A DNA stretch of 64,000 nt. Source: an uncultured Planctomycetota bacterium (GTDB taxonomy: Bacteria; Planctomycetota; Planctomycetia; Pirellulales; Lacipirellulaceae). The DNA is taken from positions 64,001-128,000 of the forward strand of contig CAVRBU010000005.1 of NCBI GenBank assembly GCA_963719315.1, read 5' to 3'. The notes below the pieces were generated by a model. The model ran no database searches, was not told where the DNA came from, and worked only from the letters and a program-made list of their open reading frames with translations. Position numbers and translations under genes: made by a program. Below, one piece after another: positions 52,390-64,000 of the stretch (the first letter of the stretch is position 1; every line of letters starts with the position of its first letter).

Positions 52390-53382
52390 CTAAACGCCAG
52401 CCGTGATCGCCGGGATCCGCATGCCCAGGTGGAGACCCAGGTCGCGCAGCTTGTTGCGAACTTCGGTGAGCGTGGTTTCACCGAAGTTGCGGACCTCCAA
52501 TAGTTGATCTTCCGACTTCGTGACGAGATCGCGAACGGTCAGGATATTCTCGGATTCGAGGCAGTTTCCGGCCCGCACAGACAAATTCAAATCCGCAAGG
52601 CTCATGGCCAACTTGGTCTCGAGGCCGGCGTCCATGTTGATCATGGTGTCTCGCGCCGGCGAGCGAACCATCGGGCCGAGCTCGGTGTATTGAACGAACG
52701 GATTGAGGTGCTTCCGCAAAATCTTGGCGGATTCGACGAGTGCCATTTCCGGCGCGACCGAGCCGTTGGTCCAAATCTCGAGCGTGAGCTTGTCGTAGTT
52801 CGTCTTTTGACCGACGCGCGTTTCCTCGATGCCGTAACGCACGCGGACCACGGGACTGTAAACGGCGTCGATCGGAATGATGCCGATTTCCTGAATGTTC
52901 TGGCTGTGCTCGCTGGCCGGAACGTAGCCGCGGCCGTTCTCGATGACCATCTCCATGACGAACGGTACATTATCGGTCAGCGTGGCGAGGGCGTGGTTAG
53001 GATTGAGGATTTCAATCGCCTCGTCGGTCTCGATATCGGATCCGAGCACCGGGCCGGCCGAGTTCTTCTCGACGCGCAGCACGCGCGTCGTTTCGCTGTG
53101 ATTTTTGACGATCAGCGATTTGACGTTGAGCACGATGTCGGTGAGGTCCTCGAAAACTCCTTTGATCGTCGTGAATTCGTGCTGCGCGTTGTGAACCTTG
53201 ATCTGCGTCACGGCGCTGCCTTCCAAGCTGGAAAGGAGCACGCGGCGCAGGCCGTTGCCGATCGTCGAGCCGAAGCCGCGCTCGAACGGCTCGGCAATAA
53301 ATTTGCCGTAGGTCGAGGTGAGGGAAGCCGCATCGCAGGTCACCGCACTGGGCAACTCGAGTCCGCGCCATCGAATATGCAT
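52390..53382 (-). CDS. rpoA: RNA polymerase alpha subunit
   Basis: [42 protein letters not shown]. Confidence 0.97.
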
Positions 53383-53466
53383 GAGAGAGTCTCCACTGAA
53401 GGTTCGGGGTTCAGGGTTCGGGGTTCAAGTCGCCGGCTTTCAGATCTGAACTTGAGTACCGAACAC

Positions 53467-54093
53467 TTATCGCGAGCAAAGCTCAACGATCAATTGCGTC
53501 TGTACGGGAATGGATACATCGTCGGCGGCGGGCAGTCGGCCGACGACGCCTTCCGGAATCTGGGCGTCGTTGCGGGACAAAAAATCGGGGATGTCGCGGC
53601 CGCCTTCGGACAATGCACCGCGGACCAGATCGAGGCTTTTGGCGCGATTCTTAACTCGAATCAGGTCGCCGATGCGGACCTGGTAACTCGGGATATCGAC
53701 GCGTCCGCCGTTGACGGTAATGTGGCCGTGGCGAATCATCTGCCGGGCCTGAGCCCGACTTTGACCGAAGCCCAACCGATGCACGACGTTATCCAGACGG
53801 CGTTCGAGCAACACCATGAGCGCGTCGCCAGTGTTGCCCTTGCCCTTCACGGCCTCGTGAAAATACTTGCGAAATTGTCGTTCCAAGACACCGTAATAGT
53901 GCTTCACCTTTTGCTTTTCGCGGAGGTGAGTGCCGTAATCGGTGAGCTTGCCGCGGCGGGTTTGATGCATGCCGGGCGGGTTTTCACGACGCTCGATCGC
54001 GCACTTCGGCGTATCGCAACGCGTGCCCTTCAAAAACAGCTTCATGCCGTCGCGGCGGCAGAGGCGACAGACGGGTCCGGTATATCGTGCCAT
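53467..54093 (-). CDS. rpsD: 30S ribosomal protein S4
   Basis: MARYTGPVCRLCRR, LERRLDNVV. Confidence 0.97.
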   Translation of the reverse strand: MARYTGPVCRLCRRDGMKLFLKGTRCDTPKCAIERRENPPGMHQTRRGKLTDYGTHLREKQKVKHYYGVLERQFRKYFHEAVKGKGNTGDALMVLLERRLDNVVHRLGFGQSRAQARQMIRHGHITVNGGRVDIPSYQVRIGDLIRVKNRAKSLDLVRGALSEGGRDIPDFLSRNDAQIPEGVVGRLPAADDVSIPVQTQLIVELCSR

Positions 54094-54183
54094 GAATGGG
54101 TTCAGGGTCAGGGGTCAGGGGTCTGATTAAGTGCTCGGGCTCGGGTGCAAGGCTCTTCGCTGAACCCTGAACCCTAAACCCAC

Positions 54184-54597
54184 TTACACGCGGCGTTTCT
54201 TGCGGGGACGGCAACCGTTGTGCGGCAACGGCGTGATGTCTTCAATGGATTTGACTTTCAAGCCGGCGGCTTCGAGCGCGGTGATCGCGCTTTCGCGGCC
54301 GCTGCCGGGGCCTTTCACCTTGACTTCAACTTCCTTGACGCCGTATTTCTTGGCCTTGTCGGCCGCTTGCTGGGCCGCCATCTGGCCGGCGAAGGGCGTG
54401 CTCTTGCGGCTGCCTTTGAAGCCGCTCGTGCCGGCGCTGGCCCAGCACAGCGTATCGCCCTTGGTGTCGGTGATCGTGACGGTCGTGTTGTTGAACGTCG
54501 CTTGGATAAAAGCGACGCCCACCGACACGTTGCGACGCGCTTTCTTCTTGGCTGCCTTCGTGCTGGTTGCGGCGGGAGCCGCTGCTTCTTTCGACAT
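54184..54597 (-). CDS. rpsK: 30S ribosomal protein S11
   Basis: [22 protein letters not shown]. Confidence 0.97.
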
Positions 54598-54679
54598 GAT
54601 AGTGGAAGTAATCTCAGTTTTCGTTCTAGCTAAGCCGCCAGCGGCGAAATGTGCCGTGCCCGCTCAGCGGTAATCGTTT

Positions 54680-55063
54680 TTAGCGGAGGTCTTTGACGCC
54701 CTTCTTGCCGGCGACGGTTTTCTTGGGGCCCTTGCGGGTGCGAGCGTTGGTGCGCGTGCGCTGGCCGCGAACCGGAAGCCCGCGACGATGGCGCACGCCC
54801 CGGTAGCAAGTAATATCCTTGAGCCGCGTAATATCCTGATTGACTTTCCGGCGGAGCTGGCCTTCGACGGTGTAATCCTTATCCAGCAGCGCGGCGATCC
54901 GCGCCACTTCGTCTTCGCCCAACTCGCGGGCGTGGGCCTGCGGGTTGACGCCCGCTTTGTGGCACAACTCGCGAGCCGTCTTCGTGCCGACGCCGTATAA
55001 GTACGTCAGCGAGATGGCGGTTGGGCGGTCGGGCGGGATATCAACACCTAACAGACGCGGCAT
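54680..55063 (-). CDS. rpsM: 30S ribosomal protein S13
   Basis: RGLPVRGQRTRTNARTRKG. Confidence 0.97.
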   Translation of the reverse strand: MPRLLGVDIPPDRPTAISLTYLYGVGTKTARELCHKAGVNPQAHARELGEDEVARIAALLDKDYTVEGQLRRKVNQDITRLKDITCYRGVRHRRGLPVRGQRTRTNARTRKGPKKTVAGKKGVKDLR

Positions 55064-55162
55064 GGTTTGCTCCGGTTCTTACTGCATTCGATACGTTTTG
55101 GTGCGCACTTCGTCGCACGACGCGGCTAAACGGACGGGGTCCGCAGTATCACACGATGGACG

Positions 55163-55276
55163 TCAACCTTGCCGCTGTTTGTGGCGGGGGTTGCTACACA
55201 CGACATAGACGACGCCACGACGGCGCACGACCTTACACTTATCACAAATTCGCTTGACGCTGGCTTTGACTTTCAT
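55163..55276 (-). CDS. rpmJ: 50S ribosomal protein L36 (not in ORF track)
   Basis: Hand translation [37 protein letters not shown]. Confidence 0.95.
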
Positions 55277-55462
55277 CGATCCACCCGAATTTGGGCCCAG
55301 GGGCGGCCCGCAAACGGCCGTGTCCGCAGATGGCGGTAAACGCTTGAATATACGCCCTGCACACCGCCCAGTTCAAGGGCTGAATTTTCAGAGTTTCTAA
55401 ATCGCGGCAGGGACCGTTTGTCGGCCAGTTTTGCAGGGGTTGGGCGCCGACCACCCTGCGCA

Positions 55463-56323
55463 CTAGCTTCCCGACGACACGGGGTTGGCGGCCGAATCCA
55501 TACCGGCAAAATCCCAGGGCAAGTTAGCCAATTCGTCGGACGATGGGGCGTCCGTCAGTAACGTGGGGCCGTCTTTTGTAATCGCAATCGTGTGTTCGAA
55601 ATGGGCGCTCGGCTTGCGGTCGAGCGTCGATTGAGTCCAATGGTCGCGATGCATCTTCACGCGTTTGGTCCCCATGTTGACCATCGGCTCGACGGCAATC
55701 ACCAGGCCGGGCTCCAGCCGGAAGTCGCCGCTGCCGCGCAGCGAGCGGCTCAGGAAGTTCGGCACCTGCGGCTCTTCGTGCATTTGGCGGCCAATACCGT
55801 GGCCGACGAAACATTCGACAGTTGAAAACCCGTGGTCGCGAACGAATTGGGCCATCTCCCGGGCGACTTGGCTCCAGCGGCTCTTGGTGTGAATTAACTC
55901 GTACGCCAGGTCGAGCGTGCCTTTGGTGACATCGAGCAAGCGCTGCACCGCAGGACTGATTCGGCCGGCGGCATAAGTAACGGCGGCGTCGCCGCACCAC
56001 CCGTTGACGCGGCAACCCGTATCGACGCTCACGATATCGCCTTCTGCCAGAGTCCGATGCGTGGGTATGCCATGAACGACCTCATCGTTGATGCTCGTGC
56101 AGGTTGCGGCAGGGAATACTGGCCGACCTTGATTCTGATGCGGGTAGTCCTTGAACAGCGGCTCGGCGCCGCAGTGGCGAAAATGCTCGGTGATGACGGC
56201 GTCGATCTCGGCCGTCGTGACGCCGGGCGCGACGATCTGCGCCACCAGTTGATGAGCTTGCCAGACACAGATGCCTGCTTGGCGCATCAAGGCGATTTCA
56301 CGTTCCGATTTGAGTTGAATCAC
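55463..56323 (-). CDS. map: Methionine aminopeptidase type I
   Basis: CTSINDEVVHG, GHGIG..MHEEP, EPM, SAHFEHT. Confidence 0.95.
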   Translation of the reverse strand: MIQLKSEREIALMRQAGICVWQAHQLVAQIVAPGVTTAEIDAVITEHFRHCGAEPLFKDYPHQNQGRPVFPAATCTSINDEVVHGIPTHRTLAEGDIVSVDTGCRVNGWCGDAAVTYAAGRISPAVQRLLDVTKGTLDLAYELIHTKSRWSQVAREMAQFVRDHGFSTVECFVGHGIGRQMHEEPQVPNFLSRSLRGSGDFRLEPGLVIAVEPMVNMGTKRVKMHRDHWTQSTLDRKPSAHFEHTIAITKDGPTLLTDAPSSDELANLPWDFAGMDSAANPVSSGS

Positions 56324-56391
56324 AGCGAGCGAATGTGGTTAGAGCCGATATGTTCCGTAATTTTATCAGAAGCGGGCCCGGCTGGCGAATC

Positions 56392-56952
56392 TCAACCTGC
56401 GGCCGCATCCACGGCCGCACGTATTTTTGCAAACACCTCGTCGGGCGTCCCTTCGGCGGCGATATGTCGCAACACGCCGCGACGACGGTAATGATCCAGC
56501 AGCGGCTCCGTCAGGAGATTGTATTGCCGAAATCGCTCCCGAATGGTTTCCCGATCGTCGTCCGGCCGGCCGCGAGAGAGCAACCGCTCCACCAGCAGCG
56601 GCTCGGAGACATCCAGTGCCAGCACGAGTTCGAGCGGCATGTGGCGCTCCTCCAGGAGCCGATCGAGAGTTTCGGCCTGGGGCACCGTGCGGGGAAAGCC
56701 ATCGAACAGACAACCGCGCGAGCAATCCTTGTCGCCCAGGCGCTCGACGACAATGCCGACCACCACATTGTCCGGCACCAACTGGCCGGCCTTCATGTAA
56801 CTCGCGAACTCGAGCCCTAGCGGAGTACCGGCTTGAGCGGCGTCGCGCAGCATCTCGCCCGTGGAGAGATGCGCGACATTCAAATAGTCCTTCAGCCGTT
56901 GGGCCTGCGTCCCCTTTCCCGCGCCGGGTGGACCAAGGAAGACGATGCGCAT
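56392..56952 (-). CDS. adk: Adenylate kinase (short LID)
   Basis: GPPGAGKGTQA, FDGFPR, RGRPDD. Confidence 0.95.
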   Translation of the reverse strand: MRIVFLGPPGAGKGTQAQRLKDYLNVAHLSTGEMLRDAAQAGTPLGLEFASYMKAGQLVPDNVVVGIVVERLGDKDCSRGCLFDGFPRTVPQAETLDRLLEERHMPLELVLALDVSEPLLVERLLSRGRPDDDRETIRERFRQYNLLTEPLLDHYRRRGVLRHIAAEGTPDEVFAKIRAAVDAAAG

Positions 56953-57062
56953 GGTGTGGGGAAACTGTCGGGTGTCGGATGTCAGGTATCGGATTTCAGC
57001 GTCTGACACCTGAAACCTGACACCTCGCTTACTCATGCAGCCAGGATGAACGCATACCGTGG

Positions 57063-58424
57063 CTATTCCTCCAACAGCCCCGAGTAGTTGCGCATCACGA
57101 GGTGACTATCGATTTTCTGGACCAGGTCGAAGGCCACGCTGACTGCAATCAACAGACTCGTGCCGCCGTAGAAGCTGGCGATCACGGGCTCAACGTCCAG
57201 CGAATTGGAAATCAGCGTCGGAATGATTGCGACAATGGCCAGGAAGCCGGCGCCCACGTAGGTTATGCGGACCATCACCTTTTCCAGGTAATCGGCCGTG
57301 CGTTTGCCGGGGCGATAGCCGGGAATGAATGAACCGAAGTTTTTCAGGTTATCCGCCATATCCTTCGGATTGAATGTAATCGCGGTCCAGAAGTAACAGA
57401 AGAAATAGATCAGGACCAGATAAAAAATGTTGTAGATGTAACCGTGATCGCGGCCGAAGACGCCGGCCAGCCAACTTATCGTGCTATGCCACCAGCCTTC
57501 GCTCCTGGAAGCGCGCTCCAGATTCGTGAAGATGATCATTGGGAACATCAACAGGCTGCTGGCGAAGATGATCGGCATGACGCCGGCCTGGTTGACCTTG
57601 AGCGGCATGTAGTTCTTCGTACCGCCGAAAACGCGACGGCCGCGAACGTGCTTGGCACTTTGCATCGTAATGCGGCGCTGCCCAAGCGTGATAAACACCA
57701 CGCCAGTAACGACCGCCACGAACATGGCGGCCAACACAATCAGTCCTTCGATGCCGAGCTTTCCGCGCGTGCCGCTCACCTCGAAGGACGCCTTTTGGAG
57801 CAACTGATATCCGGCATAGGGCATGCGGGCTAGGATCCCGGCCATAATCAACAGGCTGATGCCGTTGCCAATGCCGAACTCATCGATTTGCTCTCCGAGC
57901 CACATCAGGAAAATAGTGCCGGCGGTCATGGTCAGAATAGTCGTGATTTTCCAGCCAAACATGATGCCGCCGGCCGAGTTCTGGAACGGCTCAGCGACGA
58001 GCCCTTGGGCCTCGACATACGACGAAAGGTAGAACCAACTTTGCACAATGCATAAAAAGAAGGTGGCATAGCGCGTGTATTCATTGATCTTCTTGCGACC
58101 TGCCTCACCTTCCTTTTGCAGTTGCTCGAGGGGCGGATAAACGCTGCCCAGAAGTTGGAAAATGATCGAGGCCGAGATATACGGCATGATGCCCAGGCCG
58201 AAGATCGTCACATCGCGCAAGCGGCTAGCACTGAACGTGGCGACGGTCTCCAGCATGTCGGCGATGCCGCCATGCTGCTTGCTCAAGGAACTCACCTTGG
58301 CGTGATCGAGGATGGGCACCTCGATTTGGAAGCCGACGCGGTAGATGGCGAGCATCAAGAGCGTCAGCCCGATCTTGGTGCGGAGTTCTGGAATCTTCCA
58401 GATGACGGAGATTTTTTGCCACAT
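57063..58424 (-). CDS. secY: Preprotein translocase SecY
   Basis: LGIMPYISASII, GIGNGISLLI, FIPGYRPG, GGTSLLI. Confidence 0.97.
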   Translation of the reverse strand: MWQKISVIWKIPELRTKIGLTLLMLAIYRVGFQIEVPILDHAKVSSLSKQHGGIADMLETVATFSASRLRDVTIFGLGIMPYISASIIFQLLGSVYPPLEQLQKEGEAGRKKINEYTRYATFFLCIVQSWFYLSSYVEAQGLVAEPFQNSAGGIMFGWKITTILTMTAGTIFLMWLGEQIDEFGIGNGISLLIMAGILARMPYAGYQLLQKASFEVSGTRGKLGIEGLIVLAAMFVAVVTGVVFITLGQRRITMQSAKHVRGRRVFGGTKNYMPLKVNQAGVMPIIFASSLLMFPMIIFTNLERASRSEGWWHSTISWLAGVFGRDHGYIYNIFYLVLIYFFCYFWTAITFNPKDMADNLKNFGSFIPGYRPGKRTADYLEKVMVRITYVGAGFLAIVAIIPTLISNSLDVEPVIASFYGGTSLLIAVSVAFDLVQKIDSHLVMRNYSGLLEE

Positions 58425-58539
58425 CGTGTGTACCCGTCCTTGGCGTTAGCATGTCGCCATTATGGGCTGAATTGCCGCTTGTGTCTTAGCGCTAAACCGC
58501 AAGCGATAGCCTTGGCTGATCATTGATCTGCAAGTTGGA

Positions 58540-59049
58540 CTACGTTCGCGCCGATTGCTTCTTTTTCCTGTCGACTGCACCTAACTTGACGACCGGTGCC
58601 TTGCCCGGGAGCACGATCGCTTCTCCGCCGGCGGCGGTAATTTTTTCGGTTGCGGTCTTGCTGAATCGGTGTGCGGAAATCTTGAGTTTCTTGGTGACTT
58701 CGCCGTTGCCGAGGATTTTCAGTTCGTCGCATACGCCTTTCGCCAAGTTGAGCGCGGCGAGCGACTCGGGCGTAACGTGGTCGCCCGACTTGTACAAATT
58801 GTTCAGATCGCCAAGATTGACGACCGCCACCGTTTTGGCCCAACGGTTGTTGAAGCCGCGTTTCGGAATGCGGCGCACCAGCGGGCTGGCGCCGCCTTGA
58901 AACACGGCCAGGAACGACACACCGTTGTGGGACCACTGGCCCTTGTGCCCGCGGCTGGCCGTTTTGCCGTGGCCGGAACCGATGCCGCGGCCGAGTCGCT
59001 TGCGCGGCTTGGCGGTGTGTACATCGCGATGAATGTCGTTGAGGTTCAT
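58540..59049 (-). CDS. rplO: 50S ribosomal protein L15
   Basis: [19 protein letters not shown]. Confidence 0.96.
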
Positions 59050-59612
59050 GATGTTAACGGGACCCCTCGTAAGCGTTCGACGTCGGTTTTGGGCCGCAAC
59101 TGCTTGAGGGCGGCAAACGTGGCCTTCACGAGCGAAACTGGGTTATTCGAGCCGAAGCTCTTGGTGAGGATGTCGTGGATGCCGGCCGCTTCGCATACCG
59201 CTCGCACGGCCGAACCAGCGATAACGCCCGCACCGGGCGACGCGGGAAGCAAGATCACGTGGGCGGCGCCGTAGCGGCCTTCGACGACGTGCGAAATCGA
59301 TTTGCGATCGAGCGTGACGGTCACCAGGCTGCGCATGCCTTCCTTGCGGGCCTTCTCGACGCTGGGCGGCACTTCGTTCGCTTTGCCGTAGCCCCAGCCG
59401 ACTTTACCCTTGCCGTCGCCGACGACGACCATCGCCGCAAAGCTGAAGCGTCGGCCACCCTTCACGACGGCGGCGCAACGCTTGATCTTGACGATGCTCT
59501 CCGAGAGTTCGCCTTCGACACGTTCACTGCGATCGCTGCGATCGCCACGGTCGCTGCGGCCGCGCGAGCCGCGTTGGCCACGTTCGGTTCGTTCGCTGGT
59601 ACCAGCCGACAT
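59046..59612 (-). CDS. rpsE: 30S ribosomal protein S5
   Basis: [17 protein letters not shown]. Confidence 0.96.
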
Positions 59613-59624
59613 AAAGTAGCCTCT

Positions 59625-59993
59625 CTAAAAACTCAATCCGCCTTCGCGCGCCGCGTTGGCCAATGCGGCCACGCGACCGTGATAGCGGTACGGCCCCCGG
59701 TCGAAACAGACGGCCTTGATGCCGGCCGCAATGGCCCGCTCGGCAATTGCCTTGCCGACGGCCTGCGCGGCATCGGCGTTGCCACCCGACTTCAATTTAC
59801 CGGACAACTGCTTATCCTGCGACGACGCGGCGGCCAATGTTTTACCGCTCAAGTCGTCGATGACTTGGACCGAAATGTGCTTGTGACTGCGGATTACGCT
59901 CAACCGCGGCCGCTCGACCGTGCCGCGCACATGCTTGCGAACGCGAAAGGCTCGCCGCTGACGAAGTTGCCGTAATTGCTTGGAGTGTTCCAT
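59625..59993 (-). CDS. rplR: 50S ribosomal protein L18
   Basis: [20 protein letters not shown]. Confidence 0.96.
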
Positions 59994-60080
59994 GATAGTG
60001 GGGGGGTCGAGGGTCGAGGGTCGAGGGTCGAGGGTCAGCAATGATCTGGCCCTCGACCCTAAACCCTCCACCCTAGACCA

Positions 60081-60624
60081 CTAAGTTGCTGTCTTGCCGG
60101 CCTTGCGGCGGACTTGCTCTCCGTCGTACCGAATGCCTTTGCCTTTGTACGGTTCAGGCTTGCGCACGGCCCGCACTTCGGCGGCAAACTGGCCGACCTT
60201 TTGCTTGTCGGTGCCCTTGATCAGGATATGGGTTTGATCGGGGCAGGTTACGGTCAGACCCTTGGGGATCTTCTTGTGAACTTCGTTCGCGAATCCGACG
60301 CGCAGTTGCAGCGTGTCGCCCGCGACGGCGCCGAGGTAGCCCACGCCTTGGATTTCAAGCTTCTTTTCGTAGCCTTCAGTGACCCCGACCAGCATGTTGT
60401 TGATCAGAGCACGGGTCAGGCCGTGGTAGGCGCGGATTTCGCGGTCTTCCGACTGCGCGGGTGCAGACGACGCTCTTGCCGTCGCCTTCGATCTGCACGC
60501 CGATTTCGGGCCGATGGGTGTACTCGAGCTTGCCGAGCTTCCCTTCGACGGTGATCGCGCGGCCGGCGACGTTCACTTTGGCACCACTGGGCACGGTAAT
60601 CGGTTTTTTGCCTATGCGGGACAT
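60081..60624 (-). CDS. rplF: 50S ribosomal protein L6, frameshifted near 60450
   Basis: MSRIGKKPI in one frame, RKPEPYKGKGIRY in another. Confidence 0.93.
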
Positions 60625-60711
60625 GTTTTAGCCTTCAGCCATCAGCTTTCAGCCAACCATCATCCGTCCTTCTTGCTTACGGCTGATGGCTGACGGCTAA
60701 TAGCCATTACT

Positions 60712-61113
60712 TTACCAAACTTCACAAAGCACTTCGCCACCGAGGTTTCGTTGCCGGGCTTCGCGGTCGCTGATCACGCCGCGGCTGGTGCTGATGATCG
60801 ATATTCCCAAACCGTTGAGCACCGGGCGTAAGCGATCGGCCGGGCTGTACACGCGACGGCCCGGTTTGCTGACGCGACGGATGTGACGAATCACGCGCTC
60901 GCCGTTCGGGCCGTACTTGAGATCGATCGCCAATTGCTTTCTCGGGGCGCCTTCTTCTTGCCCTTCGCTCCAATCCCAAATATAGCCTTCCCGCTTGAGC
61001 ACCTCAGCGAGCCCGCGCTTCACTTTGGAAAGCGGCATCTCGACACGGGGGCACTCAATTCGCACGGCGTTGCGAATGCAAGTGAGCATATCGGCGATCG
61101 GGTCGGTCATCAT
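60712..61113 (-). CDS. rpsH: 30S ribosomal protein S8
   Basis: MTDPIADML, SKPGRRVY, STSRG, GGEVLC. Confidence 0.96.
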   Translation of the reverse strand: MMTDPIADMLTCIRNAVRIECPRVEMPLSKVKRGLAEVLKREGYIWDWSEGQEEGAPRKQLAIDLKYGPNGERVIRHIRRVSKPGRRVYSPADRLRPVLNGLGISIISTSRGVISDREARQRNLGGEVLCEVW

Positions 61114-61208
61114 AAGTGGGTGAGGGTCTAGGGTTCAGGGTTGAGGGTTCTACATTCGACGGTCGAAGGTCGCACTCAACCCTCAACCATCGACACTAAA
61201 CCTTCTAA

Positions 61209-61394
61209 TTACCAACTCGCGTTTCGTACTCCGGGAATCAAGCCTTGATCCGCCAACTTGCGGAAGCAGATTCGACAGATGCCGAATTTTTGATACACGG
61301 CCCGCGGCCGGCCGCACAAGCGGCAACGGTTTTCGCGGCGCGTACTAAATTTCGGCTCACTTTTCGCTTTGGCGATTTTTGATTTGCTGGCCAC
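61209..61394 (-). CDS. rpsN: 30S ribosomal protein S14 (short Zn-binding type)
   Basis: [15 protein letters not shown]. Confidence 0.96.
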
Positions 61395-61509
61395 CGAAGT
61401 TCGTGTCCTTTTAAAGCGGTTAGCTATTAGCGGTTAGCTATTAGCCAGTCGGGTTATTCGTTTTCTCTCTGGCTGATAGCAGCTAAAGTGCTAACAGCTA
61501 ATAGCCACC

Positions 61510-62115
61510 TTATGCTTCCGCGTCTTCTCGGCGGAACGGCATGCCGAAGGCTTGCAACAGTTCGCGCATTTCGTCGTCGTTGCTCGACTGCGAGCAAATC
61601 GTAATGTTCATGCCCTGTACGCGAGTGTATTTGTCCGGGTTGAGCTCGGGGAACACGAGCTGTTCGTTGAGGCCCAGGCTATAGTTGCCGTTGCCGTCGA
61701 GCGCTTTGGGATTCAATCCGCGGAAATCGCGCACCCGCGGGAGGGCGAGCGAAATCAAGCGATCCAGAAACTCGTACATCCGAGCCCGGCGAAGCGTGAC
61801 TTTGCAGCCGACATCCAACCCCTCGCGCAAGCGGAACGCGGCAATACTTTTGCGAGACTTGCAGCGGACTGCCTTCTGCCCGGTGATTTCCGAAAGGGCT
61901 GACGTAGCTTCTTCGACGTGCTTTTTATCCGTGACGGCACTCCCAACACCCATGCTGACGACGATCTTCTCTAGCCGCGGCAACGAGAGTCGGTTCTCGC
62001 GCTTGAGCTTTTCCTTCAATTGCGGAACGATCTGTTCTTCATAGACCGTTTGCAATCGCGGCGTCGGCGGCGGGGTCGAGTCCTTCTCGGCGGGCTTATC
62101 TTTTTTCTTGGCCAT
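61510..62115 (-). CDS. rplE: 50S ribosomal protein L5
   Basis: FRLREG, LPRVRDFRG, GNYSLG. Confidence 0.96.
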   Translation of the reverse strand: MAKKKDKPAEKDSTPPPTPRLQTVYEEQIVPQLKEKLKRENRLSLPRLEKIVVSMGVGSAVTDKKHVEEATSALSEITGQKAVRCKSRKSIAAFRLREGLDVGCKVTLRRARMYEFLDRLISLALPRVRDFRGLNPKALDGNGNYSLGLNEQLVFPELNPDKYTRVQGMNITICSQSSNDDEMRELLQAFGMPFRREDAEA

Positions 62116-62180
62116 GGTTCACCCAGATGGGCACAGCCCACCACTTTTTCGATGGGCGAGGCCCACCTTGCTTGATCAAT

Positions 62181-62570
62181 CTATCTCTTTGCCGCTTGGA
62201 CCGGTTTACTTGTTTTGCCCGACGCGGCCGCTGAATGCGCCTTTTTGGCGGGCGCGATCTGGCCGGCACTCGCGCCGCACTTCTTGCAAAATCGTTCCTT
62301 GCTGCCGTCATCGAGGAACCGCGCCCCGAGCCGGGCCGCCGCGTTGCACGATGGGCAGACGTATTTCAAGTTCGACAGCTGGATCGGCATGTCCTTTTTC
62401 AAGATGCCGCCTTGAGGATACTTTTGGCTCCGGCGAATGTGCTTCTTGACGCCGTTGACGCCTTCGACAATCGCCTTGCCGGTCGCGCGATCGACTTTGA
62501 TCACACGGCTCTTGCGACCGATGTCGTTGCCCGCGATTACTTCGACGGTATCACCAGTACGGATCAACAT
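62181..62570 (-). CDS. rplX: 50S ribosomal protein L24
   Basis: GDTVEVIAG, VEGVN. Confidence 0.94.
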   Translation of the reverse strand: MLIRTGDTVEVIAGNDIGRKSRVIKVDRATGKAIVEGVNGVKKHIRRSQKYPQGGILKKDMPIQLSNLKYVCPSCNAAARLGARFLDDGSKERFCKKCGASAGQIAPAKKAHSAAASGKTSKPVQAAKR

Positions 62571-62654
62571 AGCTGTTAGCTGTTAGCTGTTAGCTATTAG
62601 CCAATCCGCTGCAAGCCTTCTGGCTAACAGCTAACAGCTAATAGCTAACAGCTC

Positions 62655-63023
62655 TTAAACTACCTCGCTCGCTAAACTGACAATTTTCATGAACTTGCGC
62701 TCGCGCAACTCGCGGGCGACGGCGCCGAAAATGCGCGTGCCGCGGGGGTTCCGCTCGTTGTCGATCAACACCACGGCATTTGAATCGAACCGCACGTAGC
62801 TCCCGTCCGGCCGGCGCGTCGGGTACTTGACCCGCACAATAACGGCCCTCACAACTGCTTTCTTTTTGACTTCACTCGTGGGCAGCGTGTTCTTGACGCT
62901 GCAAATAATCACGTCCCCCAAGCCCGCCACGCGACGACGACTACCGCCCAATACCTTGATGCACATCACTTCCTTGGCGCCGGTGTTGTCGGCGACGTTC
63001 AATCTGGACTGCATTTGAATCAT
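62655..63023 (-). CDS. rplN: 50S ribosomal protein L14
   Basis: [20 protein letters not shown]. Confidence 0.97.
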
Positions 63024-63111
63024 GTTGAAGCCTTTAGCCTTCAGCCTTCAGCCTTCCAGTCAGTCAGTTTTTCCTACTGATGGCTGAAAGCTGACGGCTG
63101 ACGGCCGTTCA

Positions 63112-63423
63112 TCACATCGTCTCGCCGGTTTCTGTCTGTTTCAATTCCGCGGCGGCGCGCATCGCGGCGATATCGACTTGCTGCGAACGCGAAACGATCC
63201 GCAGCAGGTCCCACCGCTTGAGTTTCGAGCGGGGCGGTGCTTCGATGATTTCCACCGTGTCGCCTTCGTGCGATTCATTGTCCTCATCGTGCACGTGGCA
63301 TACCGTGCGGCGGCGCATGAACTTACCGTAGCGCTTGTGCTGGACCAGCCGCTCGATTTCCACACGCCGCGACTTGTTCATTTTGTCGCTCGTAACCAGG
63401 CCGATGACTTGTCTTTTGGGCAT
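63112..63423 (-). CDS. rpsQ: 30S ribosomal protein S17
   Basis: VTSDKMNKS, HKRYGK, HDE. Confidence 0.95.
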   Translation of the reverse strand: MPKRQVIGLVTSDKMNKSRRVEIERLVQHKRYGKFMRRRTVCHVHDEDNESHEGDTVEIIEAPPRSKLKRWDLLRIVSRSQQVDIAAMRAAAELKQTETGETM

Positions 63424-63506
63424 TTTTTATAGCTCTTAGCGGTTAGCTATTAGCGGTTAGCCAAACAATTGTAAGCTTCCTCTGGCTAACAGCTAATGGC
63501 TTCTTC

Positions 63507-63713
63507 CTATTTCACAAAGGCTTTCTTCTCGCGCTGCGTTTGGAGTGTCTTGATTCGGGAGACCAGGCGACGGTTGCTGCGGAGCTCGCTGGGCGCGTCG
63601 AGCCGCTCGGTCTGCTGTTTGATTCGCAGACGGAACAGCGCCTCGTTGGCCTCCTTAAGCGTTAGCCCAAGTTGCTCGTCGCTCATATCGCGGAGTTCGG
63701 TAATCTTGGCCAT
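63507..63713 (-). CDS. rpmC: 50S ribosomal protein L29
   Basis: ELRDMS..LFRLR; position between rplP and rpsQ. Confidence 0.93.
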   Translation of the reverse strand: MAKITELRDMSDEQLGLTLKEANEALFRLRIKQQTERLDAPSELRSNRRLVSRIKTLQTQREKKAFVK

Positions 63714-63792
63714 TTGGCAGTAGCAAGTAGTAAGGTTTAAGGCATAAGCATTTTCAACTTACGACTTATACCTTGCACCTTAGACCTTTCAC

Positions 63793-64000
63793 TTAAGCTT
63801 GTCTCTTCACCATTCGTACGCGAATCGGCATTTTGTGGGCGAGGCGAGCCAGGCAAATCTTTGCCGAGGCCTCAGCCACGCCGCCCAATTCGTACAAAAT
63901 CGTGCCCGGCCGGATCACGGCCGCCCAGTACTCAGGTTCGCCCTTGCCCTTGCCCATGCGGGTTTCGAGCGGGATCGAAGTGATCGACTTGTGGGGGAAC
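63793..64000 (-). CDS. rplP: 50S ribosomal protein L16, C-terminal part
   Basis: Hand translation FPHKSITSIPLETRMGKGKGEPEYWAAV...HKMP. Confidence 0.95.
   Translation of the reverse strand, partial: FPHKSITSIPLETRMGKGKGEPEYWAAVIRPGTILYELGGVAEASAKICLARLAHKMPIRVRMVKRQA

Follow-up and report, generated by a model that had tools for sequence, protein, structure and literature searches.

Heptamer-armed hairpins in the ribosomal operon spacers of a Pirellulales genome: probable kinship with intervening-sequence protein cassettes

What are the hairpins that fill the spacers of a ribosomal protein operon, and why are they built from short tandem repeats that differ from one spacer to the next? The question is raised by the 64-kb stretch of DNA analysed here (the window; contig C5:64001-128000 of a 5.93-Mb genome with 58.5% G+C in 20 contigs), whose relatives are Pirellulales, many of them labelled Lacipirellulaceae. 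The spc/alpha operon lies on the minus strand from position 52390 to the end of the window, in the order rplP, rpmC, rpsQ, rplN, rplX, rplE, rpsN, rpsH, rplF, rplR, rpsE, rplO, secY, adk, map, rpmJ, rpsM, rpsK, rpsD, and rpoA. Within 53401-63792, Tandem Repeats Finder (TRF) reported 22 rows whose period is 7 or 14, all in 11 spacers of this operon, in contrast to only two short period-7 rows in window positions 1-53000. An earlier, sequence-only reading of the window had described these 11 spacers as inverted heptamer arrays that bring stop and start codons together, and had offered three roles for them, namely, preservation of translational coupling, RNase III processing, and the footprint of an undescribed repeat-spreading element. 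As described below, the hairpins are not specific to the ribosomal operon, and the last of the three roles has the most support, inasmuch as the same arms bracket genes of the family PF05635 and 104 of 171 hairpins in the genome match the arms of such genes.

Each stop-to-start spacer was folded as RNA of the transcribed strand and compared with 100 mononucleotide shuffles. Ten spc/alpha spacers folded as hairpins of ~80 nt with loops of 10–25 nt, whose arms are inverted heptamer arrays (z, -2.9 to -11.8); the observation is real and far beyond chance. The eleventh spacer, rpsD-rpoA (53383..53466; minus strand, as are all spacers below), contains one clear array at 53401-53427 with a degenerate partner and forms no stable hairpin (z, +0.1), so that the inverted arrays described for 11 spacers hold for ten. 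In the rplN-rplX spacer (62571..62654), TAGCTGT heptamers form the 33-bp stem reported earlier, with 33 pairs and one mismatch, leaving a single base between TAA and the stem and directly abutting ATG (minimum free energy (MFE), -58.3 kcal/mol; z, -11.8). The rplF-rplR hairpin (59994..60080; GGGTCGA family; MFE, -58.7 kcal/mol; z, -8.6) was likewise found to take in the stop codon, which is held in an outer 4-bp helix that ends 2 nt before ATG. None of the ten genes behind the hairpins is preceded by a core GGAG or GAGG, in agreement with the noted lack of a clear Shine-Dalgarno (SD) sequence; this lack is not special to them, because core SD sequences are rare throughout the genome (19% of 3397 confident genes, compared with 7% of random 17-mers). 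Families that do not fit the loose nnnYnAG pattern proposed for the heptamers also occur in the genome.

Seven is, indeed, the commonest TRF period in the whole genome (728 of 3330 rows). Merging of the rows gave 810 arrays, of which 276 have an ungapped inverted partner (score >=12, loop <=90 nt) and make up 171 hairpin loci. This number is at least 171 and is conservative, because the strict detector recovers 6 of the 10 hairpins of the window. About a dozen heptamer families recur across the genome. The arms have a median of 3.9 units, with 3–5 copies in 204 of 236 arrays, whereas arrays outside hairpins reach up to 54 copies; the open-ended copy number of slippage repeats is thus not a property of the hairpin arms. 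The ungapped stems have a median length of 24 bp (interquartile range, 18.5–30), and the loops, 25 nt. The G+T-rich arm is the 5' arm in 134 of 167 hairpins, a property that is the same on both strands. At C13:35343-35428, a 14-nt unit repeated six times stands beside an inverted heptamer partner, giving a far longer one-sided array than in typical hairpins.

The placement of the loci was examined with our own crude gene caller (5552 genes genome-wide, with approximate start positions). Hairpins were found in 118 of 3648 co-directional spacers (3.2%), compared with 9 of 944 convergent (1.0%) and 15 of 940 divergent ones (1.6%), the remainder lying within called genes (28) or at a contig edge (1). 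At the 118 co-directional loci, the median distance is 8.5 nt from stop to stem (10 nt or less in 67 loci) and 18.5 nt from stem to the next start, both distances being 20 nt or less in 54 loci; where 40 nt or more of the spacer remained free (54 loci), the position of the hairpin was biased towards the stop (mean fraction, 0.39; p 0.018). After subtraction of the hairpin, the spacer has a median of 35 nt, compared with 113 nt for other co-directional spacers (p 7e-7). Outside the window, the 53 tight loci, judged by the Pfam families of both neighbours, separate classical operon pairs, such as MotA-MotB, FeoA-FeoB, FlhA-FlhF, type II secretion E-F, NuoC-NuoD (twice), ArgD-ArgF, FadB-thiolase, GlpK-GlpF, MoxR-DUF58, L2-S19, NusG-L11, and L11-L1. 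Moreover, ribosomal-like codon usage is stronger in the flanking genes (median, 0.696) than in other confident genes (0.661; p 8e-17), with 24% of the former in the top decile, and the strict detector found 6 of 19 junctions occupied in the ribosomal stretch, compared with 112 of 3629 elsewhere (p 2e-5). A terminator function was rejected: of 15 terminator-like sites, none coincides with the minus-strand heptamer hairpins in a scan confined to loops of 3–8 nt, and the under-representation of hairpins in convergent spacers also weakens this reading.

The same genes were then located in 80 related loci. In more distant Pirellulales, the corresponding spacers measure -1 to 19 nt, whereas in the closest relatives they measure 75–115 nt and are filled by hairpins; the rplN-rplX spacer is 5 nt or shorter in 35 of 62 measurable related loci, and the rpsN-rpsH spacer is 14–19 nt in 18. 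These lengths indicate that the hairpins are derived insertions of ~80 nt. The heptamers found at a given junction differ among the relatives, being of the TAGCTGT, GCTGTCG, GTCCGTN, TAGTCGT, and GAATGAC types at rplN-rplX and of the AGGGTTC, GTCCGTN, GGTGTCA, GGGTTGA, and GTGAGTA types at rpsN-rpsH. At rpsH-rplF (60625..60711; AGCCNTC variant of the GCTGTTA family; z, -6.2), where 20 relatives have orthologous hairpins, a single family persists in most relatives and drifts. In an alignment of 21 orthologous spacers from this junction, with the relatives L001 and L002 left out as carriers of other heptamer families, 91.1% of the cells are paired, and changes on both sides were found in 13 of 23 pairs, compared with 7.6 +/- 1.4 in shuffles (0 of 500 reach 13). 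An identical T-to-C change is present in every unit of both arms. The earlier proposal that structure, not sequence, is conserved is therefore borne out by different heptamers in spacers of similar length and by the pairing kept at rpsH-rplF, and the heptamer turnover at constant geometry for which a comparison of relatives had been suggested was found.

Which genes are flanked by the same heptamers elsewhere, as the sequence-only reading had also asked? They are genes of PF05635, which encode the intervening-sequence protein (IVP) found in 23S rRNA insertions and related to Avd, the pentameric RNA-binding protein of diversity-generating retroelements (DGRs). The genome contains 11 of these Avd-like genes. 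Together with 28 in relatives, they form 39 loci, 35 of which have inverted heptamer arms (score >=13) in their flanks, and one of those without scoring arms is cut by a contig end; by contrast, only 3 of 150 random small genes reached this score. Moreover, with the 99th percentile of shuffled arms as the cut-off, 104 of the 171 hairpins match the arm family of a cassette in their own genome, and 128 match one when the cassettes of relatives are included. The matches cover the TAGCTGT and GGGTCGA hairpins of the window: the rplN-rplX hairpin has a similarity of 0.96 to an arm of the genome's own IVP cassette L091, and the rplF-rplR hairpin matches an arm of another own cassette, L093. The rpmC-rpsQ hairpin (63424..63506; GCTGTTA/TAGCTGT family with a GCCAGA...TCTGGC stem top; z, -4.6) also matches an arm of L091, and the best match of the rpsQ-rplN hairpin (63024..63111; AGCCTTC/AGCCGTC family; MFE, -43.8 kcal/mol; z, -6.6) is a cassette arm of a relative, L100.

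In all 11 cassettes of this genome, the open reading frame (ORF) points in the same direction as the gene upstream of it, and in 9 of them the two flanking genes are co-directional. An internal stop interrupts at least two of these ORFs. Among the PF05635 proteins, compared without four ORFs (three interrupted by internal stops and one truncated at the end of a contig), the 25 most similar pairs (62–81% identity) carry related heptamers (Mantel p 0.018). No reverse transcriptase gene stands beside the PF05635 genes, since neither of the two RVT_1 matches in the genome adjoins a cassette; these matches (C5:217803-218465 and C18:10790-11452) have equal scores and are probably two copies of one retroelement. 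Relative to the ORF, the G+T-rich arm comes first in 28 of 35 cassettes. The cassette at C4:579255-579575 has arms of 8-nt units, with ~14 copies in the downstream arm against the usual 3–5. No published work joining heptamer repeats and the intervening-sequence protein was found in a literature search that did not cover subscription journals and unindexed papers.

Since the same arms enclose a PF05635 gene, the spacer hairpins look like gene-less copies of an element. The present data show the anatomy and placement of the hairpins, their derived state, their turnover with pairing retained, and their kinship with PF05635 cassettes, and we favour, at a rough probability of 0.55, the view that the hairpins are gene-less members of a genome-wide palindromic insertion family that is kin to cassettes of the intervening sequence (IVS) type. 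The element would have arms of 3–5 tandem heptamers, and its full-size form would enclose the small PF05635 gene. Presumably, such elements settled in sense orientation in the short stop-to-start junctions of transcribed operons in the lineage ancestral to this Pirellulales clade, with the highest density in highly expressed operons. The two arms would then have changed in concert, so that the hairpins were preserved even as their heptamers drifted or gave way to others. Their tolerance in mRNA may be due to the position of the stem base, which is separated by only a few bases from the stop on one side and from the next start on the other. When positioned on a stop codon, a ribosome occupies about a dozen bases beyond it; a terminating ribosome would therefore melt the lower stem and free the neighbouring start, keeping the cistrons coupled, and a stem that ends at a start codon would in this way be compatible with the coupling of the ancestral -1 to 19-nt junctions. 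Alternatively or additionally, RNase III, whose gene is present in the genome, may cut the ~24–33-bp stem by analogy with rRNA intervening sequences. Translational coupling thus fits the junction geometry, and RNase III processing is suggested by analogy. We take the hairpins not to have been built for the ribosomal operon, and suggest a selfish origin for the elements, which would survive where they are least harmful, as tolerated or mildly useful insertions.

Several results weigh against this interpretation. Recent copying is not evident, because only five near-identical pairs (>=85% identity over >=80% of the length) were found among the 171 hairpins. Comparison of the occupied rplN-rplX junction with unoccupied ones revealed no target-site duplication; of the features of a miniature inverted-repeat transposable element, the inverted arms are present, together with these five pairs and without a duplication at that junction. 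No ORF is present in the window hairpins, 67 of the 171 hairpins have no cassette arm match in their own genome, and the 23S rRNA of this genome is uninterrupted (a match of 2928 nt over 2925 model positions). PF05635 genes also occur in four of five genomes that lack ribosomal-operon hairpins (7, 4, 2, 0, and 11 genes), compared with 9, 13, 7, 10, and 7 genes in five hairpin-rich ones, and in these ten other genomes their copy number showed no clear relation to the hairpins. The co-variation of arms and proteins is explicable by joint inheritance alone. As for a role in mRNA, the sense and antisense folds are equally stable (-39.3 and -39.9 kcal/mol; p 0.67; n=118), and sense-strand G.U and A.C mismatches are equal genome-wide (227 and 239), giving no genome-wide sign of selection on the transcribed strand. 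In the 21 orthologous rpsH-rplF spacers, G.U mismatches outnumber A.C ones (~33 versus ~15 in a hand count with the two top pairs excluded), which is a hint only. The distances to start codons are rough because of the crude gene caller.

The same data can be set against readings in which the hairpin serves the host. One is a purpose-built coupling device, selected to join stop and start so that a ribosome leaving one ribosomal protein cistron would reinitiate at the following one, in an organism in which SD sequences are rare. It accommodates a stem base close to both codons (both within 20 nt in 54 of 118 loci), the preference for otherwise tight junctions, the over-representation in co-directional spacers, the absence of a core SD behind the window hairpins, and the pairing kept in 21 orthologous spacers. 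We nevertheless regard it as improbable, in view of ancestral junctions of -1 to 19 nt that were already coupled, to which an insertion adds nothing obvious, and of the 24 hairpins in convergent or divergent spacers and 28 in called genes. The identical arms that elsewhere surround a gene do not fit such a device either, nor does the lack of sense-strand bias in stability or wobble pairs, and SD use is low genome-wide. To a similar degree improbable is the view that the stems are mainly RNase III cleavage sites, by which polycistronic transcripts would be cut into single-gene mRNAs or their stability set. Stems with a median of 24 bp and up to 33 bp in the window resemble the 28-bp IVS stem reported for Coxiella (PMC4990558), the RNase III gene is present, and the IVP cassettes share these arms; yet no strand-specific signature was found, and the benefit of 10 cuts in a ribosomal operon is not obvious. 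Cleavage of this kind, moreover, overlaps with the insertion-family reading, in which it would be a tolerated consequence rather than the purpose.

Other readings dispense with the PF05635 cassettes. Among long simple repeats of prokaryotes, heptanucleotides are reported to be the most abundant (Mrazek 2007, as cited in PMC4679880), and the arms could be purely local slippage arrays, inverted by fold-back copying with neither a mobile element nor a PF05635 role. The loops differ between copies, near-identical pairs number only five, and the same base change in all units of both arms fits homogenisation in place. Such an origin is nonetheless decidedly unlikely, as many unrelated junctions share the same dozen families, the arms are held to 3–5 units while other arrays reach 54 copies, relatives carry unrelated families at one junction, and 35 of 39 PF05635 genes lie inside such arms, compared with 3 of 150 controls. 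Palindromes of the repetitive extragenic palindromic (REP) and bacterial interspersed mosaic element (BIME) type, moved by a REP-associated tyrosine (RAYT; Y1) transposase, would supply a mobile agent; the genome has 11 matches to Y1_Tnp (PF01797), and REPs, too, are described as intergenic palindromes within operons (PMC3733652). We hold this to be very improbable: the arms are tandem heptamers, not a single 20–40-nt palindrome, and the link to RAYT was rejected when none of the 11 Y1 genes proved to have a hairpin locus within 2 kb. The PF01797 matches include C14:2333-2668 and C3:130287-133214, and two on C3 lie 2.3 kb apart.

The hairpins can be compared with several known systems. At Rfam gathering thresholds, the whole 64-kb window gave no matches. 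The cyanobacterial short tandemly repeated repetitive (STRR) sequences are a heptanucleotide class of simple repeats, and the characteristic feature of long simple sequence repeats and STRR, tandem intergenic 7-nt units that are commoner than other periods, is present here. Tandem heptamers are a known and unexplained repeat class, to which the present hairpins add. In Beggiatoaceae, TAACTGA heptamers are reported as intergenic tandem arrays, often just before start codons and also inside ribosomal-protein operons, in spacers without ribosome-binding sites (MacGregor 2015, PMC4679880). According to the same source, they are nearly all direct arrays of one heptamer, with one indirect repeat in 170 sets in Beggiatoa, whereas the arrays here are paired as hairpins and are built of many heptamers. 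Closer in anatomy are the GGGAATC heptamers of Xanthomonas, which are intergenic, occur as convergent pairs on opposite strands, and are capable of forming stem-loops (Rehm et al. 2015, PMC4692102); 70 such pairs are given for Xcc and 75 for Xac, the type being kept between the species and the length varying. They differ in forming one G-rich, G-quadruplex-forming family, as against about a dozen families here, many without G-runs, and the part of PMC4692102 available to us draws no link to PF05635 or to operon-junction geometry. The REP/BIME elements are scattered intergenic palindromes, often within operons, that are thought to affect mRNA stability (PMC3733652), and are unlike the present arms, which are tandem heptamers of many sequences with PF05635 as the associated gene and no RAYT association. 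A REP is a 20–40-nt palindrome with a conserved GTAG or CGTC tetranucleotide at one end, whereas the arms here, judged by eye, are built of many different heptamers.

The rRNA intervening sequences are a further such system. Those of Coxiella burnetii and Leptospira have terminal inverted repeats with a stem of ~28 bp, comparable to the stems of up to 33 bp in the window, and a small four-helix-bundle gene inside the stem, as in the present PF05635 cassettes, which is co-transcribed with the host gene (PMC4990558). In Coxiella, the 28-bp stem with an S23p ORF in its loop is described as being cut by RNase III in mid-stem; cutting of the present stems would follow by analogy. The elements here differ in lying between the protein genes of operons instead of in a 23S rRNA helix and in the ORF-less state of the window copies, and tandem heptamers go unmentioned in the IVS description contained in the portion of PMC4990558 at hand. 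S23p is the family name of the IVS ORF product, and DGR RNAs are reported to bear Avd-binding stem-loops (bioRxiv 10.1101/2023.10.23.563531); Avd itself is described as a positively charged pentamer whose barrel is similar to S23 ribosomal proteins (PMC10053308; bioRxiv 10.1101/2023.10.23.563531). By analogy with this pentamer and its stem-loops, it is plausible that the cassette protein acts on its own stem.

We also consider a more far-reaching proposal, which is speculative and has the odds against it, namely, that PF05635 proteins belong with heptamer-armed hairpins in a class of cassettes not recognised so far, which would enter the stop-to-start junctions of transcribed operons and, in other bacteria, 23S rRNA helices, in sense orientation, each protein lineage recognising its own heptamer and the empty hairpins being non-autonomous copies. 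Perhaps one protomer of the pentamer would bind per 7-nt unit, which, if true, would explain the arms of 3–5 units, and the empty hairpins might have been co-opted to punctuate the RNA and so keep neighbouring cistrons coupled. Known for decades, bacterial heptamer repeats and the ORF of rRNA intervening sequences are both unexplained, and each has been studied without the other; in this genome they are found together, with most heptamer families matched by a PF05635 cassette here or in a relative and with gene-less forms at ten junctions of what is the cell's most expression-sensitive operon. What we add is the saturation of a ribosomal operon with hairpins, their geometry at the junctions, the heptamer turnover in related genomes, and the PF05635 link with its control. 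The system offers a way of asking what an Avd-like intervening-sequence protein does outside retroelements, and how ribosomes handle a 33-bp stem ending at a start codon when SD sites are mostly absent.

The window contains five further heptamer hairpins. The rplE-rpsN spacer (61395..61509) is made of GCTATTA/GCGGTTA units (z, -4.3), the rpsN-rpsH spacer (61114..61208) belongs to the GGGTTGA family (z, -3.5), and the rpsK-rpsD spacer (54094..54183) belongs to the AGGGTTC/GGGTCAG family (z, -5.1), with a loop common to the relatives L001, L002, and L028. In secY-adk (56953..57062; GGTGTCR family; z, -2.9), the hairpin lies in the adk-side part, and rplP-rpmC (63714..63792) has a weaker hairpin with arms of period 7/14 (MFE, -24.9 kcal/mol; z, -3.6), including a 14-mer TRF row at 63765-63792. 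Seven spacers are free of heptamers (rplX-rplE, rplR-rpsE, rplO-secY, adk-map, map-rpmJ, rpmJ-rpsM, and rpsM-rpsK), and rpsE and rplO overlap by 4 nt. The rplX-rplE spacer (62116-62180), which measures 9–117 nt in relatives, contains a stable hairpin that is not made of tandem heptamers (MFE, -28.9 kcal/mol; z, -3.2). In the 186-nt, heptamer-free map-rpmJ spacer (55277-55462), a sigma-70-like promoter match at 55376-55347 suggests that the alpha-operon part may start its own transcription. Finally, rplF (ribosomal protein L6; 60081-60624, minus strand) appears as two overlapping frames with a break near 60376-60460; its length of 544 nt, compared with 543 nt in the relative L001, points to one extra base, which in an essential gene is most likely an assembly or sequencing error.

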